Below are positions 1 through 5,005 of a stretch of DNA of 5,005 nucleotides, in pieces. The notes below the pieces were generated by a model. That model did not search any database. It had not been told where the DNA came from and worked only from the letters and a program-made list of their open reading frames with translations. The position numbers were made by a program, and so were the translations under genes. Origin of the DNA: a virus (taxonomy: Duplodnaviria > Heunggongvirae > Uroviricota > Caudoviricetes). The DNA lies in IMG/VR virus record IMGVR_UViG_2698536450_000013. One strand, written 5' to 3'. The number at the start of each line of letters is the position of its first letter. Position 1 is the stretch's first letter.

Positions 1-103
1 CCAGCGACCAGCGACCAGCGACCAGCGACCAGCGACCAGCGACCAGCGACCAGCGACCAGCGACCAGCGACCAGCGACCAGCGACCAGCGACCAGCGACC
101 AGC
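1..103 (+). repeat. Perfect heptanucleotide tandem repeat (CCAGCGA)n, 14 full copies plus a 5-nt partial copy; tract continues past the 5' window edge
   Basis: Direct reading: ccagcga repeats without mismatch from 1 to 98, then ccagc (99-103). The unit is not a multiple of 3. All three + frames are open through the tract and encode the same heptapeptide in circular permutation (QRPATSD in frame 2). Confidence 0.95.
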
Positions 104-2155
104 AGTAAATCAAGAAAGTCTGTAAAATCTGTTGAGCCGGAAATTACCGAACTGGCGAACTCATGGCTTAAATCTTACAGGCTTGATTACAAGTTGCAGA
201 ATGCATCACTTAACGGAGAGATCGATAACGCACTGGACGCTTATTTTTCGAAAAATGGCGGCGCAGGCGGTAATCGTCCCGACGTAAAACTCCTTGTTAA
301 GGACAAATACGGCAAGCAGTATCCCGTTCTCATCGAGTATAAAGGCTACAAGGACAGGCTTATCAGACTTGGCAGCAACGGTATTATTGAGAACAAAGAT
401 GCCAGAAAAGAATGGAATTTTAAAAATATTAATGGATACGCGGTGAATGGCGCAGTCCATTATGCCAACGCACTTCTTCAGTTCACCAATTACCCTGATA
501 TTATTGCTATTGGTATGACCGGCTGGCGCGATGATGGTACAGGCGAACTGCATCATGAAATCGGCGTGTGGTACGTATCAAAGAATAATTTAGGAGCCGG
601 ACAGAAGGTTGGTGAATTCACCGACTTATCGTTCCTTGCTGATAAAAATGTTGATGGATTTCTCAACAAGATAAAGCTGCTTAATCTTCCTCCCGAAGAA
701 CTGGAAAAAATCAAGGCCAGCAAAGAGGAAGAGATAGACACGCGACTTTCCCGTCTGAATAACGATATTTACCAGAATGAAAAGGGGCTTGGTGAAAGTG
801 ATCGTGTTTACCTTGTTGTGGCTACCGTTATTGCAACGTTGGGGATTCCGGGAAAGTTAGCACCGCTGGATAAAAAAGAACTGACCTCTTCAACGGAGGA
901 GGACTTGCGTGATGGTGATATTATTTTCAGGAAAATAAGGAATTTTTTAAGGCTGAAAGCTGTTCCTGAAACAAAAAGAGAAATGATTTTGCGCTCGTTG
1001 CAAAATACGCTGTGGACTGAAAACATTAACAAACCAGTCAACGGTGAAAGCCAGTTAAAGCGCGTGTTTGTTAAAGTTGTTGATGATCTTGGGGAGTATT
1101 ACAAAATTGGACTGACCACCGATTTTACGGGCAAACTGTTTAATGAGATGTATCGCTGGCTTGGATTTACGCAGGACAAGCTCAATGACGTCGTTCTGAC
1201 ACCACCTTATGTTGCCACATTGCTGGCACGACTCGCCAGAGTAAACAAAGATTCCTATGTGTGGGATTTTGCTACAGGTTCTGCGGGATTGCTTGTGGCT
1301 GCAATGAATGAAATGCTCATTGACGCCAGAGAAAATATTCACTCACCGAACGAACTACAACTTAAGGAAGCGCAAATCAAGGCTGAACAGCTTCTTGGCC
1401 TTGAGGTGTTATCCAGTATTTATATGCTGGCCATCCTGAATATGATTTTGATGGGGGATGGTAGCTCGAATATCCTCAATAAAGACTCGCTGGCCGATTT
1501 TGACGGCAAGTATGGATTTGGGAAAACAGGAGAAAAATTCCCTGCGGACGCATTTATTCTCAATCCTCCGTATTCAGCTAAAGGTAACGGCATGATTTTC
1601 GTGCAGAAGGCGCTGTCGATGATGGATAAAGGCTATGCTGCAGTGATTATCCAGAGTTCAGCTGGCACAGGAAAGGCTACGGAGTACAACAAAAAAATAC
1701 TCAAGGAAAATACCTTGCTGGCAAGCATCAAAATGCCTGCGGATCTGTTTATTGGTAAATCAAGCGTTCAGACGTACATTTACGTTTTTCAGGTAAAAAT
1801 TCCGCATAACGCGAAACAGGCTGTTAAGTTTATCGACTTTTCCAATGACGGCTACGCTCGCTCTAATCGCAAAAAGGCAAGAAACAATCTTGTTGATGCC
1901 GATCGTGCAAAAGAGCGTTATCAGGAGGTTGTGGATCTGGTTCACTTCGGGAAAGGTTGCCTTAATATCTTTACGGAGGATGAATATTTTGAGGGAACAA
2001 TCGATCCTGATAGTGGTGAGGACTGGAATCAGACCAGGCCAGTAGATGCTAGGCCAACGCTGGAGGATTTCAAAAAGACGGTAGGTGATTACCTTGCATG
2101 GGAGGTCTCGCAATTACTGAAAAAACAAGGTGAAAACAATTTTGCGGGAAAGTAA
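2..2155 (+). CDS. 5'-partial CDS: gamma-class N6-adenine DNA methyltransferase with an N-terminal putative PD-(D/E)xK nuclease domain (Type IIG/IIB-like or Type I HsdM-like modification subunit)
   Basis: Frame 2 has no stop from the window start to TAA at 2153-2155. The ORF track starts at TTG 194 only because there is no ATG/GTG/TTG earlier; the upstream translation (SVEPEITELANSWLKSYRLDYKL) reads as ordinary protein and TTG 194 has no convincing Shine-Dalgarno. Motifs seen: LTPPYVATLLARLARV followed by VWDFATGSAGLLVAA (SAM-binding motif I, about nt 1258-1300), FILNPPYS (catalytic motif IV, about nt 1552-1575), and the post-NPPY region AAVIIQSSAG...LASIKMPADLFIGKSSVQTYIYVFQV typical of HsdM/MmeI-type enzymes. 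N-terminal RPD (D codon 281-283) ... IEYK (E 335-337, K 341-343) fits PD-x(n)-ExK. Confidence 0.8.
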   Translation, partial: QRPATSDQRPATSDQRPATSDQRPATSDQRPATSSKSRKSVKSVEPEITELANSWLKSYRLDYKLQNASLNGEIDNALDAYFSKNGGAGGNRPDVKLLVKDKYGKQYPVLIEYKGYKDRLIRLGSNGIIENKDARKEWNFKNINGYAVNGAVHYANALLQFTNYPDIIAIGMTGWRDDGTGELHHEIGVWYVSKNNLGAGQKVGEFTDLSFLADKNVDGFLNKIKLLNLPPEELEKIKASKEEEIDTRLSRLNNDIYQNEKGLGESDRVYLVVATVIATLGIPGKLAPLDKKELTSSTEEDLRDGDIIFRKIRNFLRLKAVPETKREMILRSLQNTLWTENINKPVNGESQLKRVFVKVVDDLGEYYKIGLTTDFTGKLFNEMYRWLGFTQDKLNDVVLTPPYVATLLARLARVNKDSYVWDFATGSAGLLVAAMNEMLIDARENIHSPNELQLKEAQIKAEQLLGLEVLSSIYMLAILNMILMGDGSSNILNKDSLADFDGKYGFGKTGEKFPADAFILNPPYSAKGNGMIFVQKALSMMDKGYAAVIIQSSAGTGKATEYNKKILKENTLLASIKMPADLFIGKSSVQTYIYVFQVKIPHNAKQAVKFIDFSNDGYARSNRKKARNNLVDADRAKERYQEVVDLVHFGKGCLNIFTEDEYFEGTIDPDSGEDWNQTRPVDARPTLEDFKKTVGDYLAWEVSQLLKKQGENNFAGK

Positions 2156-2195
2156 ATTCCCCGCTCAGCGATAAATTAAGAAGCGTTGAGTGGGG
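2146..2195 (+). promoter_or_regulatory. Candidate programmed -1 ribosomal frameshift cassette: slippery heptamer G_GGA_AAG (2146-2152), in-frame TAA (2153-2155), 6-nt spacer, 12-bp stem-loop (2159-2170 paired with 2184-2195, 13-nt loop)
   Basis: GGA and AAG are the last two sense codons of the upstream ORF. The -1 frame (GGG AAA GTA AAT...) is the frame of the downstream ORF, which is open from 2134. Stem CCCCGCUCAGCG pairs with CGUUGAGUGGGG (10 Watson-Crick plus 2 G-U); it may extend to 14 bp from 2157. Confidence 0.45.
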
Positions 2196-2214
2196 AGAGT
2201 TCAGGATTGGCGAT

Positions 2215-3309
2215 TTGTTCTATGTGAGCACAGGCTCGCTTATCTCCTCAGGAAGATTAAAACCAGGCAAAATCAAACGTGTTTCAGCAAAGAGCGATCA
2301 AAACGGTATCATCGGAGAGTTTGATACCGAGTTTATGGATGATGCAAGGCATTATGAAAATTTTATAAGCGTTAATTTTTTTGGAGATGCTTTTTATCAT
2401 CCTTATTGTGCCAGCGTAGAAATGAAGGTGCATGTTCTTACATTAAAATCAAGTAAGTCCGACTTTAATGCAAAGCGCGGACTGTATGTTGCCAGTATGA
2501 TTAATAAAGCTTTAAAGGGGCGTTTTAATTATGGTCAACAGTTATCGAGTTCCAAACTCAGAGATGGAGAATATTTCATCTCATTACCAGTGAAAAATAA
2601 TGAAATTGACTGGTTTTTTATGGATAATTATATAGAAGAGCTGGAAGCGGCCCATATAGAAGAGCTGGAAGCATACCTGATAGCTGCTGGGCTGAGTGAT
2701 TACCAACTAACGGAAAAAGATTATCTTATCCTGGAGCATTTTAAAAATATTGAATTTTCAGGCTTTCCTGTTACTGAGTTATTCTCAGTGTGCAATACAG
2801 GAAACATATTGTCTAGAGACATCATAGAAAATAGTGGGGATGTTCCTTATCTTTGTGCTAGCCGTGATAATAACTCTGTTAGTTCTTATATCGCCTATGA
2901 TGACTCACTCTTGGAAAAAGGGAACTGTATTTTTATTGGTGGTAAGACATTCGTTGTAACTTATCAGGAGCGAGACTTTTTTTCAAACGACAGTCATAAT
3001 TTGCGACTCTATGTTAACAATGAGGATGGAAGGACAAAGTTTGCTTATTTGGGCATTATTTCATGTATTTATAGGTCTATTTCACATAAATATTCATGGG
3101 GGGATAGTGTTAGTAATAGAAAAATTAAGAACGATGTTATTTGGTTGCCAGTGAAAAATAAGTCACCTGACTTTTGTTATATAAATGACCTTATTTCAGT
3201 TGTTCATAAGCTTGTCATTAAAGATGTTGTCCAGTACGCAGAACGCAAAATGAACGCATACAGGCAAGCTATAACAAGTCGCGGTTATGATGATTCTGGT
3301 GTCAGTTAA
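2215..3309 (+). CDS. Restriction-modification specificity (S / HsdS-like, BcgI-B-like) protein with two target-recognition domains; true N-terminus probably upstream of 2215 (frame open from 2134)
   Basis: ORF-track ORF of 364 aa ending at TAA 3307-3309. No ATG or GTG start and no Shine-Dalgarno; the listed start is TTG. The upstream in-frame translation VNSPLSDKLRSVEWGEFRIGDLFYVSTGSL looks like the start of a target-recognition domain. A second domain begins similarly (FSGFPVTELFSVCNTGNIL, about nt 2760). A repeated central region (IEELEAAH IEELEAYL) lies between them. The gene is visibly more AT-rich than the tRNA/TerB region. Confidence 0.7.
   Translation: MFYVSTGSLISSGRLKPGKIKRVSAKSDQNGIIGEFDTEFMDDARHYENFISVNFFGDAFYHPYCASVEMKVHVLTLKSSKSDFNAKRGLYVASMINKALKGRFNYGQQLSSSKLRDGEYFISLPVKNNEIDWFFMDNYIEELEAAHIEELEAYLIAAGLSDYQLTEKDYLILEHFKNIEFSGFPVTELFSVCNTGNILSRDIIENSGDVPYLCASRDNNSVSSYIAYDDSLLEKGNCIFIGGKTFVVTYQERDFFSNDSHNLRLYVNNEDGRTKFAYLGIISCIYRSISHKYSWGDSVSNRKIKNDVIWLPVKNKSPDFCYINDLISVVHKLVIKDVVQYAERKMNAYRQAITSRGYDDSGVS
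2630..2672 (+). repeat. Tandem duplication of a 24-bp (8-codon) unit inside the S-subunit central region: two perfect 19-bp copies of ATATAGAAGAGCTGGAAGC at 2630-2648 and 2654-2672
   Basis: Direct reading; the period is 24 bp, so it is in frame, encoding IEELEAAH / IEELEAYL between the two target-recognition domains. Confidence 0.9.
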
Positions 3310-3604: not shown

Positions 3605-3724
3605 GTCCGTAGCGTCAAAGCAGCAATGGCGCTGGGGCGTCGTGCAATTGGCGTTGAGCTGGAGAGCGGGCGTTTTGAGCAGACGGTCAGGGAAGTTCAG
3701 AATGTAGTCAGTCAGAACGGATGA
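3605..3724 (+). pseudogene. 3'-terminal remnant of a beta-class (CcrM/Dam-like phage) DNA methyltransferase gene; N-terminal and catalytic parts absent
   Basis: Frame 2 translation ending at TGA 3722-3724 reads ...AAMALGRRAIGVELESGRFEQTVREVQNVVSQNG*. This resembles the segment that follows the C-terminal SAM-binding motif in beta-class amino-methyltransferases (pattern LGR-x-[FA]-IG-[IV]-E). The expected DPFxGSGTT motif is missing upstream, where the sequence is non-coding-like and contains the terminator. Confidence 0.45.
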
Positions 3725-3764: not shown

Positions 3765-3840
3765 GGCCCTTTAGCTCAGTGGTGAGAGCGAGCGACTCAT
3801 AATCGCCAGGTCGCTGGTTCAAATCCAGCAAGGGCCACCA
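3765..3840 (+). tRNA. tRNA with anticodon CAU, resembling enterobacterial tRNA-Ile2 (lysidine, AUA-decoding) more than initiator or elongator tRNA-Met
   Basis: Hand-folded cloverleaf: acceptor GGCCCTT/AAGGGCC, D-stem GCTC/GAGC, anticodon loop CTCATAA, T-stem GCTGG/CCAGC, T-loop TTCAAAT, encoded CCA at 3838-3840. Confidence 0.88.
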
Positions 3841-3847
3841 TCACATA

Positions 3848-3924
3848 CCGCCATTAGCTCATCGGGATAGAGCGTCAGCCTTCGAAGCTGGTTGCGCGGG
3901 GTTCGAGTCCTCGATGGCGGTCCA
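3848..3924 (+). tRNA. tRNA-Arg, anticodon read as UCG (CGA/CGG-decoding)
   Basis: Hand-folded: acceptor CCGCCAT/ATGGCGG, D-stem GCTC/GAGC, anticodon stem TCAGC/GCTGG, loop CTTCGAA (U33, anticodon TCG at 3882-3884, A37), T-stem CGGGG/CCTCG, T-loop TTCGAGT, discriminator T, encoded CCA. Confidence 0.82.
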
Positions 3925-3937
3925 TTATCTGCACACT

Positions 3938-4014
3938 GTGTTGTTAGCTCAGCCGGACAGAGCAATTGCCTTCTAAGCAATCGGTCAGTGGTTAGACTCC
4001 ACTACAACGCGCCA
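3938..4014 (+). tRNA. tRNA-Arg, anticodon UCU (AGA-decoding, rare codon)
   Basis: Hand-folded: acceptor GTGTTGT/ACAACGC (one G-U), D-stem GCTC/GAGC, anticodon stem ATTGC/GCAAT, loop CTTCTAA (anticodon TCT at 3972-3974), T-stem AGTGG/CCACT, T-loop TTAGACT, discriminator G, encoded CCA. Confidence 0.85.
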
Positions 4015-4051: not shown

Positions 4052-4183
4052 GTATCTGCGCCACGCCCGGCGCATATCAACCACAGAGCCTTTCGGGGGT
4101 GAGCTTACGGAGTGGTCAGTGTGACTTTCTCTGTGGGCAGATCGCTCCCGGGCGTTGGCTCACCCACCCAAAGGAACGTCACG

Positions 4184-4615
4184 ATGTTTGGTATTTTTGG
4201 TAAAAAAGCCCGCCGAGCGGCAGTGGAAATTAAAAAGTTTGAGAAACGTGATCTGGCACAGGCGGTTATTAATGCTGCCTATCTGGTGGCCTATGCAGAT
4301 GGTGAATGTGAGGCTTCAGAGAAAGCGAAGATCGAGCAGGTCTTGCGTAACCAGCCTGCGTTGTCCGCGTTTACGTCAGAAATTAATGCGATTAGCGCAA
4401 CCATTATCGGTCAGCTGGATACCAATTTTAAAATTGGTCGTCGTGCCGCGTTACGCGAGATTGAGGATGTGAAACACGATACGCGTGAAGCGGAAGACGT
4501 GCTGGATGTGGCGGTGGCCATTGCCGAAGCAGACGGCGAAATAGAGCCGGAAGAGCGCAAGGTGCTGGAAGAGATTGCCGGTGTTCTGGGCCTTCGTCTG
4601 GAGAATCATCTGTGA
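4184..4615 (+). CDS. TerB-like (tellurite-resistance TerB family) domain protein, 143 aa
   Basis: ATG at 4184 is preceded by AAGGA (4171-4175) at 8-nt spacing; stop TGA 4613-4615. Two acidic ADG motifs typical of the TerB fold: VAYADGECEASEKAKI and IAEADGEIEPEERKVL. The ORF-track start at GTG 4112 adds 24 residues with no ribosome-binding site. Confidence 0.7.
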   Translation: MFGIFGKKARRAAVEIKKFEKRDLAQAVINAAYLVAYADGECEASEKAKIEQVLRNQPALSAFTSEINAISATIIGQLDTNFKIGRRAALREIEDVKHDTREAEDVLDVAVAIAEADGEIEPEERKVLEEIAGVLGLRLENHL

Positions 4616-4776: not shown

Positions 4777-5005
4777 CAGGGTATCAGTTACCCGTTGAAA
4801 TTTTTAAATACCTCACAATTCAGGCGGTTGACTGTTGTCTGGTTTGCGGGGAGTTTGTTAAAAGAAACTGGCATGGTGAATCCCCCTGTGCGGAGGGGCA
4901 ATCAGCAACCAGGTATATGTGATAATCGCGGATTCAGGTGCTGATACTGAATTCACCGGGAGGCACCCGGCACCATGCTTTGCCACAAAAGTGTTGTTTC
5001 TGTTT

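Follow-up and report, generated by a model that had tools for sequence, protein, structure and literature searches.

Can a restriction-modification system alter the DNA target that it recognizes by gaining or losing a short repeat between its two target-recognition domains (TRDs)? This question is raised by a duplicated 24-bp unit in a specificity gene (S) carried by a stretch of 5,005 nucleotides of the virus record IMGVR_UViG_2698536450_000013 (IMG/VR; Caudoviricetes), which is called the window below, meaning this whole stretch. In the window S follows a gene that encodes a fused restriction endonuclease and methylase (RM), and both belong to a cassette found in lambdoid prophages of Escherichia coli. 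The 24-bp units encode part of the inter-domain helix of S and their copy number varies naturally, and by analogy with other restriction-modification enzymes this variation probably alters the spacer of the bipartite target. Moreover, the junction of the two genes carries a heptamer, a stop codon and a hairpin which together, as judged from the sequence, form a candidate signal for -1 programmed frameshifting, by which S would be joined to RM.

A duplicated 24-bp unit in the central helix of S

The 19-mer ATATAGAAGAGCTGGAAGC occurs in exactly two perfect copies in the window, both on the + strand and 24 bp apart (2630–2648 and 2654–2672), as described in the initial annotation, which had reported two perfect 19-bp copies with a period of 24 encoding IEELEAAH and IEELEAYL. 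A comparable match, even with two mismatches allowed, was found in none of 200 dinucleotide-preserving shuffles, by a naive estimate approximately 2e-8 such 19-mer pairs with a fixed offset would be expected in 5 kb, and Tandem Repeats Finder reports an array at 2632–2683 with a period of 24, 2.2 copies and a score of 69. Aligned as full units (Table 1), the two copies are identical at 19 of 24 positions, the first 17 of which are all identical.

The protein in which the units lie has the architecture of an HsdS-type specificity subunit. The open reading frame (ORF) 2215–3309 matches the Pfam family Methylase_S (PF01420) in two stretches and the PADLOC model Specificity_II ("Type II specificity subunit", E=9e-21); no NCBIfam model matches S, and searches with the RM and S sequences against the chains of the PDB gave no match. 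An AlphaFold model of S computed with 48 homologues (predicted local distance difference test, pLDDT, 90.2; predicted template modelling score, pTM, 0.72) is composed of TRD1, a central helix, TRD2 and a C-terminal helix, and its Foldseek matches include the HsdS structures 1YDX, 1YF2, 2Y7C and 7BST (EcoR124I) and S of the Type IIB enzyme BsaXI (8W0P). Pfam, AlphaFold and Foldseek hence agree on the HsdS fold, with two TRDs, a central helix between them and a C-terminal helix. In this model both units form residues 161–176 of the central helix 154–178, that is, 16 of its 25 residues, and the earlier placing of the units between both TRDs is borne out by the Pfam stretches and by the modelled central helix. 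In the HsdS fold the central helix usually packs against the C-terminal helix.

Natural variation of the copy number

The central region of the window allele, together with both TRDs, is present in 20 of 5,426 complete E. coli genomes; 18 of these have two units, and the remaining two (SCU-104 and JNEC-KY173) have three by an exact insertion of 24 bp. Next to a different TRD1, two units are found in JNEC-KY171 and three in strain 48. For the TRD pair of the window, the protein collection contains alleles with two (P0003/P0004), three (P0005–P0011) and four units (P0001/P0002), the three-unit proteins P0005 and P0007 being present on 107 and 69 contigs, respectively, with intact ORFs. For a second type of TRD1 the series runs from one unit (P0015) to two (L003), three (L004, L012) and four (L011), the loci L012 and L011 being located on IMG/VR contigs. 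The variation extends to Salmonella, with alleles of two, three and four units, and to Neisseria, in which loci with an identical RM protein have two versus three. Alleles that differ by one unit are otherwise 99.6–99.9% identical: S of the window and of SCU-104 (L002) differ by 1 mismatch and a 24-nt indel, and the S pairs L003/L004 and L048/L049 by 7 mismatches each and a 24-nt indel. Single 17-mer matches in IMG/VR, considered as one-copy alleles, were discarded, as they stem from unrelated proteins with a chance IEELEA.

A survey of the family gave two copies in 74 of 102 scorable homologues, three in 19, one in five and four in four, and most homologues, over a range that extends from Clostridia to Proteobacteria, have the doublet xxELEAxx-xxELEAYL. 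Judged by these sequences, two copies are the ancient default of the family and not a recent duplication, and departures from it arise repeatedly. The gain or loss of one 24-bp unit put forward in the initial annotation is thus upheld in so far as natural alleles differ by one unit, but the two-copy state itself is an old default. Within a gene the units are near-identical in DNA, and between lineages they differ at synonymous sites, the corresponding codons being GAA GAG CTG in the window, GAG GAA CTT in L005 and GCC GAG CTG in Neisseria. Alike within a gene yet distinct between lineages at synonymous sites, the units evolve in concert, as is characteristic of sequences that unequal exchange or slippage keeps homogenising.

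A BcgI-like enzyme and its partner gene

The translation of RM, a fusion of 653+ amino acids, contains the nuclease motif PD..(14)..EYK and the N6-adenine methylase motif NPPY. RM matches the PADLOC model REase_MTase_IIG with E=6e-228 over profile positions 36–717 of 721 as well as the PADLOC models PDLC03616 and PDLC03602, in Pfam it matches N6_Mtase and, weakly, VRR_NUC, and one phage record labels it "BcgI alpha chain-like". The 30 residues upstream of the annotated start TTG 194 are conserved in homologues of Neisseria and Providencia and in the PADLOC profile. Against the NCBIfam model hsdM, RM reaches 36 bits at a cut-off of 243, and no HsdR is annotated within the surrounding 21-kb locus; the separate HsdM with a nearby HsdR that characterizes Type I systems is not found at the window locus. 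As in BcgI-like systems, RM joins an N-terminal PD-(D/E)xK nuclease to an N6-adenine methylase, and the domain content of S is that of a BcgI-like S (two TRDs), but its frame lacks a canonical start before the conserved N-terminus. Because the partner is a nuclease-methylase fusion and HsdR is absent, the system is, by its encoded domains, a BcgI-like Type IIB/IIG pair (RM and S) and not Type I, and the initial identification of S as a Type I HsdS had to be abandoned on the same grounds.

RM proteins which are ~70% identical to that of the window were found at 80 loci (L053–L132) in Clostridia, Bacteroidota, Proteobacteria, Campylobacterota, Spirochaetes, Gracilibacteria and Saccharibacteria. 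Such a taxonomic spread implies that RM, which appears highly conserved and is paired with variable S genes, has been distributed very widely by horizontal transfer.

From helix length to spacer length

In-frame tandem repeats in the central helix, as observed in S of the window, are known from EcoR124I/II (Type IC), from NgoAV and from the S subunits of Helicobacter pylori Group 2 Type I systems (12-bp repeats); in these enzymes unequal crossing-over alters the copy number, which in turn determines the length of the spacer. EcoR124I/II have N6 with two TAEL repeats and N7 with three (PMC3874165), NgoAV has GAC N6 TGC with one LEAT repeat and GAC N7 TGC with two (PMC6789123), and in H. pylori Type I enzymes the methylated bases are 7 bp apart with three 4-aa repeats and 8 bp apart with four (PMC3983042). 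By analogy, unequal recombination or replication slippage between the direct repeats of 19–24 bp would add or remove one in-frame unit, each unit would move and rotate TRD2 relative to TRD1 and would thereby change the non-specific spacer of the bipartite target, and with the spacer both the methylated and the cleaved sites would change. The predicted step is ~2 bp of spacer per 8-aa unit, because one 4-aa repeat corresponds to 1 bp in all three of these Type I cases, and because the rotation over 8 helix residues is close to that over 2 bp: 4 residues turn by ~40 degrees and 1 bp of DNA by ~34–36 degrees, and 8 residues turn by ~80 degrees compared with roughly 69–72 degrees for 2 bp. When the natural four-copy allele P0001 was modelled, a single continuous central helix of 41 aa resulted and the C-terminal helix still had 36 aa, so that added units lengthen the predicted helix residue for residue, from 25 aa at two copies to 41 aa at four.

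Several observations weigh against a change of specificity. The sequence of the C-terminal partner helix is identical in two-, three- and four-copy alleles and only the central helix changes, so that strain or loss of activity may affect some of the variants. The pTM drops from 0.72 to 0.54 in the four-copy model, in which the confidence in the helix and in the arrangement of the domains is lower as well. The strong predominance of two copies (74/102) fits an optimum from which other numbers are tolerated or defective. Expression is uncertain, as a repeat tract in RM leaves the gene out of frame in three of nine loci and S lacks its own start codon. The step of 2 bp is extrapolated from 4-aa repeats of another enzyme type, the literature search, in which papers on E. 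coli ST131, Salmonella phage types and the mining of temperate phages had no bearing on the matter, yielded no methylome or recognition sequence for strains bearing any of the copy-number variants, and for the Type IIG S genes of H. pylori motifs were not assignable in methylome work (PMC3983042).

These points are shared in large part by the main rival explanation, according to which forms with other than two copies are loss-of-function or neutral products of slippage, only the two-copy enzyme is active, and defence genes of prophages are dispensable or often switched off. The prevalence of two copies across phyla, the constant length of the C-terminal partner helix, the less confident inter-domain arrangement of the four-copy model and the loci with RM out of frame all suit this explanation, as does the fact that related BcgI-like systems of H. 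pylori 26695 and Neisseria gonorrhoeae showed no methylation. However, the three-copy allele is widespread with intact ORFs, as seen for P0005 and P0007, the copy number has varied independently on five or more TRD backgrounds and in three genera, and Type I enzymes whose repeat number is altered retain activity while their spacer shifts. We regard inactive or neutral variants as the less likely explanation, which nevertheless keeps substantial weight, and still favour an altered spacer as the probable consequence. Another explanation, that the duplication is an ancient fixed structural feature of the central helix devoid of continuing dynamics, could appeal to the doublet shared by most homologues, but the near-identity of the DNA copies within a gene, their synonymous differences between lineages and the occurrence of one to four copies among near-identical alleles already contradict it and make it very improbable; homologues all fixed at two diverged copies, the outcome that would have spoken against the initial annotation, were not what the survey returned. 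Finally, repeats are miscountable in principle, and the differences in copy number could be artefacts of assembly or sequencing. Nothing specific points to this, the array of 48–96 bp is below any read length, and finished long-read chromosomes (SCU-104, JNEC-KY173, strain 48) contain the variants, as do IMG/VR contigs and independent contigs in their hundreds, so that artefacts are a negligible explanation.

A candidate frameshift signal at the RM–S junction

The conserved N-terminal peptide of S, VNSPLSDKLRSVEWGEFRIGD (2152–2214), contains no start codon. In RefSeq, S (L001; window 2197–2658 and 2749–3309) is annotated either as a pseudogene fragment with a short coding sequence or with a TTG start, and in other records or by other gene callers the start is placed at ATT, CTG or ATA. 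The 3' end of RM reads GCG_GGA_AAG_TAA, and S lies in the -1 frame relative to it. At 77 diverse RM loci from many phyla, an in-register GGGAAAA, GGGAAAG or AAAAAAA is located 0–1 codon before the stop in 75, and S is in the -1 frame at 75 of the 77. At the 73 loci with GGGAAA[A/G] abutting the stop, the preceding codon has G as its last base in every case while encoding varying amino acids (L, S, P, E, Q, A), and from the heptamer onward the -1 frame encodes the conserved peptide GK(I/V)(D/N)(A/S)(P/S)LN.KL..V(E/K)WGE in the 73 aligned junctions; an ATG is present at the junction point in only six of these 73 loci. Other E. coli alleles have A_AAA_AAG at this junction.

Downstream of the stop, RNAfold predicts a hairpin (2157–2197) with z = -4.0. 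Over the 73 junctions, 92% of the stem cells are paired, compared with 36–49% when the partner column is slid, and one pair covaries (TA 35, CG 18, TG 17, CA 0; Fisher p = 4e-7). The constituents of a -1 cassette of the dnaX or lambda G-GT type, namely a heptamer in register, a -1 ORF lacking a start and a downstream structure, are hence all present at the junction. Rfam searches at gathering thresholds detected only three tRNAs and STnc100 and no known frameshift element, and in the literature searched, whose coverage was incomplete, so that this is absence of evidence only, there was no report of frameshifting in restriction-modification systems. It was also considered whether translation re-initiates at a non-canonical start that overlaps the stop of RM, but this was rejected, as the codon in question is GUA at 27 and AUA at 40 of the 73 loci; the invariant first G of the heptamer, which neither protein needs, disfavours re-initiation as well. 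If the candidate signal is functional, one mRNA would give rise to both RM and an RM-S fusion, which would fit the (RM)2S stoichiometry of Type IIB enzymes.

As a separate observation, covalent linkage at this junction occurs in nature in two in-frame RM-S fusions (L086, 221–2809; L112, 1517–4204). One fusion, of 862 aa, consists of RM, TRD1 and the central helix and comes from a Bacteroidetes metagenome-assembled genome, and the other, of 895 aa, consists of RM, one TRD and the C-terminal helix and comes from Algoriphagus.

Further repeat tracts in RM and S

The left edge of the window lies within a heptanucleotide tract, (CCAGCGA)n, at the 5' end of RM. In full loci the tract directly follows ATG-CTG-CCA-GA (AAAAGGATGATTTTATGCTGCCAGA), which is the probable true start of RM; in L001 the full tract spans 7481–8103 and the start codon 7472–7474. 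At the nine loci analysed n ranges from 9 to 120, with 64–120 copies in long-read genomes and 9–19 in short-read contigs. All three frames read through the tract as (QRPATSD)n, and past it only the RM frame is open; the nine loci are split 3/3/3 over the three phases, and RM is out of frame in three of them. The unit is not a multiple of 3, it lies in the 5' coding region and its number determines the frame, as in contingency genes, and by its sequence the RM tract has the layout of a phase-variable (contingency) gene. Such a layout is not known to be common in E. coli. A minus-strand RefSeq protein over the tract (window 1–113), annotated as "YXWGXW repeat-containing" or hypothetical, was rejected as a repeat artefact. 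Nothing useful was found in the literature on CCAGCGA and heptanucleotide repeats in E. coli prophages, and E. coli is absent from a published survey of Type I systems bearing simple sequence repeats.

Sister alleles carry an octanucleotide tract, (GCGGACTC)n, which is absent from the window, in S just past the central helix. With n = 3, 6 or 9, TRD2 is in frame, and with n = 16 or 26 TRD2 is in another frame and S is truncated to TRD1 and the helix (half-S). The three repeat modules would thus act on different properties of the enzyme: the 7-nt tract would switch RM, and hence S, on and off, the 24-nt unit would step the spacer by ~2 bp, and the 8-nt tract would switch TRD2 on and off. Taken together, we consider the chances to be about even that S is never a free protein but a C-terminal extension of RM made by a conserved -1 frameshift (GGGAAAR, stop, hairpin), and that the versions in E. 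coli and Salmonella have been diversified by the three repeat modules.

Comparison with known systems

In H. pylori, the S gene of a Type IIG system contains 0–4 tandem copies of the 24-bp unit CAGTGTCGGCTCGCCGAACTTGAG (QCRLAELE) between the TRDs (Furuta et al. 2011, PMC3077401), and variation of the recognition sequence was predicted from this repeat in the same study (Furuta et al. 2011, PMC3077401). Hpy99XXII, of the H. pylori HP1471/JHP1364 family, recognizes TCA N6 TRG (Krebes et al. 2014, PMC3936762). The H. pylori S (HP1471/JHP1364) is orthologous to S of the window, and the 24-bp unit is at the same place and strain-variable in both, reading QCRLAELE there and AAHIEELE here; the homologue P0057 of H. 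pylori is 48% identical to S of the window over 98% of the query, with the repeat region IAELEQCRLAELEAYL. Like the gene of Furuta et al. (2011), the present one is therefore a homologous S gene with a strain-variable 24-bp unit between the TRDs, here in 1–4 copies. The two differ in that the window system resides in E. coli on a lambdoid prophage and in the DNA sequence of the unit; furthermore, the heptanucleotide tract in RM and, in some alleles, the octanucleotide tract in S are additions of E. coli, whereas H. pylori has a poly-G in S. Variation of a 24-bp repeat hence has its precedent in the H. pylori orthologue, and the E. coli prophage case adds a new member to this known kind. For the BcgI-like S gene of H. 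pylori (HP1471/HP1472) it was published that there is "no potential start codon" after the RM stop, and NgoAVIII of N. gonorrhoeae showed no methylation "despite appearing intact" (PMC6789123).

Compared with the Type I enzymes, the repeat unit is 8 aa (24 bp) here and 4 aa (12 bp) there, and the enzyme is of Type IIB, with an RM fusion, no HsdR and predicted cleavage at a fixed distance on both sides. With BcgI and BsaXI, which are (RM)2S enzymes, the window system shares the N-terminal PD-ExK nuclease, the gamma-class N6-adenine methylase and an S with two TRDs whose fold resembles 8W0P; unlike in these, S of the window is apparently devoid of its own initiation codon and apparently read by a -1 frameshift from RM. 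No variation of a repeat number is reported in the BcgI/BsaXI literature examined. If the frameshift operates, the long product of ~1,070 aa would be a single chain, as are the R-M-S enzymes AloI, CjeI and TstI, but in contrast to those enzymes, which are fused at the DNA level, a short RM product would also come from the same mRNA.

Prophage setting and features of the window

The window derives from E. coli, in whose lambdoid prophages the cassette is bordered on one side by hok and the Q antiterminator and on the other by a trio of tRNA genes and lysis genes. Finished genomes with the locus include 2013C-3250, 2013C-3033, E110019, the O111:H8 strains 7-15 45A, 7-32 9A and 7-58 72A, SCU-104, JNEC-KY171/173, strain 48 and 2012EL-2448, in some of which RM is out of frame. 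The same prophage region houses the Shiga toxin (stx) genes in one matching genome, 2013C-3033, where the match spans stx1c, and the complete phage PhiR12_3 (from ECOR13) also bears the cassette. The features discussed here are collected in Table 1.

Table 1. Coordinates of features of the restriction-modification cassette and its surroundings (window positions unless a locus is named)
Feature	Position	Strand	Remarks
Heptanucleotide tract (CCAGCGA)n, right end, at the 5' end of RM	1–103	+	tract runs off the window
RM gene	1–2155	+	annotated from TTG 194; frame open to the left edge of the window; conserved N-terminus upstream of 194
S reading frame	2134–3309	+	open from 2134; first canonical start TTG 2215
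Slippery heptamer G_GGA_AAG (candidate), RM frame	2146–2152	+	RM stop TAA directly after, 2153–2155
Predicted 14-bp hairpin, candidate stimulator	2157–2197	+	arms 2157–2170 and 2184–2197; 13-nt loop; 4 nt past the heptamer
S TRD1	2191–2595	+	model residues ~14–148; PF01420 stretch, model, Foldseek
S central alpha-helix, coding region	2611–2685	+	model residues 154–178, 25 aa
Repeat unit 1	2632–2655	+	ATAGAAGAGCTGGAAGCGGCCCAT, IEELEAAH, frame of ORF 2215–3309; perfect core with 2-nt lead 2630–2648
Repeat unit 2, terminal variant unit	2656–2679	+	ATAGAAGAGCTGGAAGCATACCTG, IEELEAYL; perfect core 2654–2672
S TRD2	2755–3156	+	model residues ~202–335; PF01420, model, Foldseek
S C-terminal helix	3172–3279	+	model residues 341–376, 36 aa
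Site-specific DNA methyltransferase gene remnant	3610–3723		downstream of the cassette
Three tRNA genes	3765–4014		CAT anticodon, annotated Ile; Arg-TCG; Arg-TCT; downstream of the cassette
TerB-family ORF	4112–4615		downstream of the cassette
Small RNA STnc100	4842–5005		cut by the window end; downstream of the cassette
Octanucleotide tract loci (sister alleles)	L006 4069–4196; L011 9632–9839; L046 2701–2772

Significance

The alleles described here form a natural series in which identical recognition domains are combined with 1–4 units and in which the partner helix does not differ among the two-, three- and four-unit alleles examined. Such a series is suited to asking how the lengthening of one helix of the HsdS pair is accommodated, a question left open in a review of Type I enzymes (PMC3874165), and also to asking if a step of 8 aa shifts the spacer of a Type IIB enzyme by 2 bp. 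If 2 bp per unit is true, the specificity of a whole family of prophage-borne defence and epigenetic systems in E. coli, Salmonella and Neisseria could become predictable from their sequence. The observations made beside the repeat may matter more than the repeat. The fusion of S to RM by frameshifting, if true, would put recoding to a new use in restriction-modification and would correct those annotations in which S is a pseudogene or begins with ATT, CTG or ATA. Dependence on a frameshift might explain the start-less S of H. pylori and the lack of methylation by NgoAVIII, and with them why "intact" BcgI-like systems of both species were found to lack activity or a start codon.

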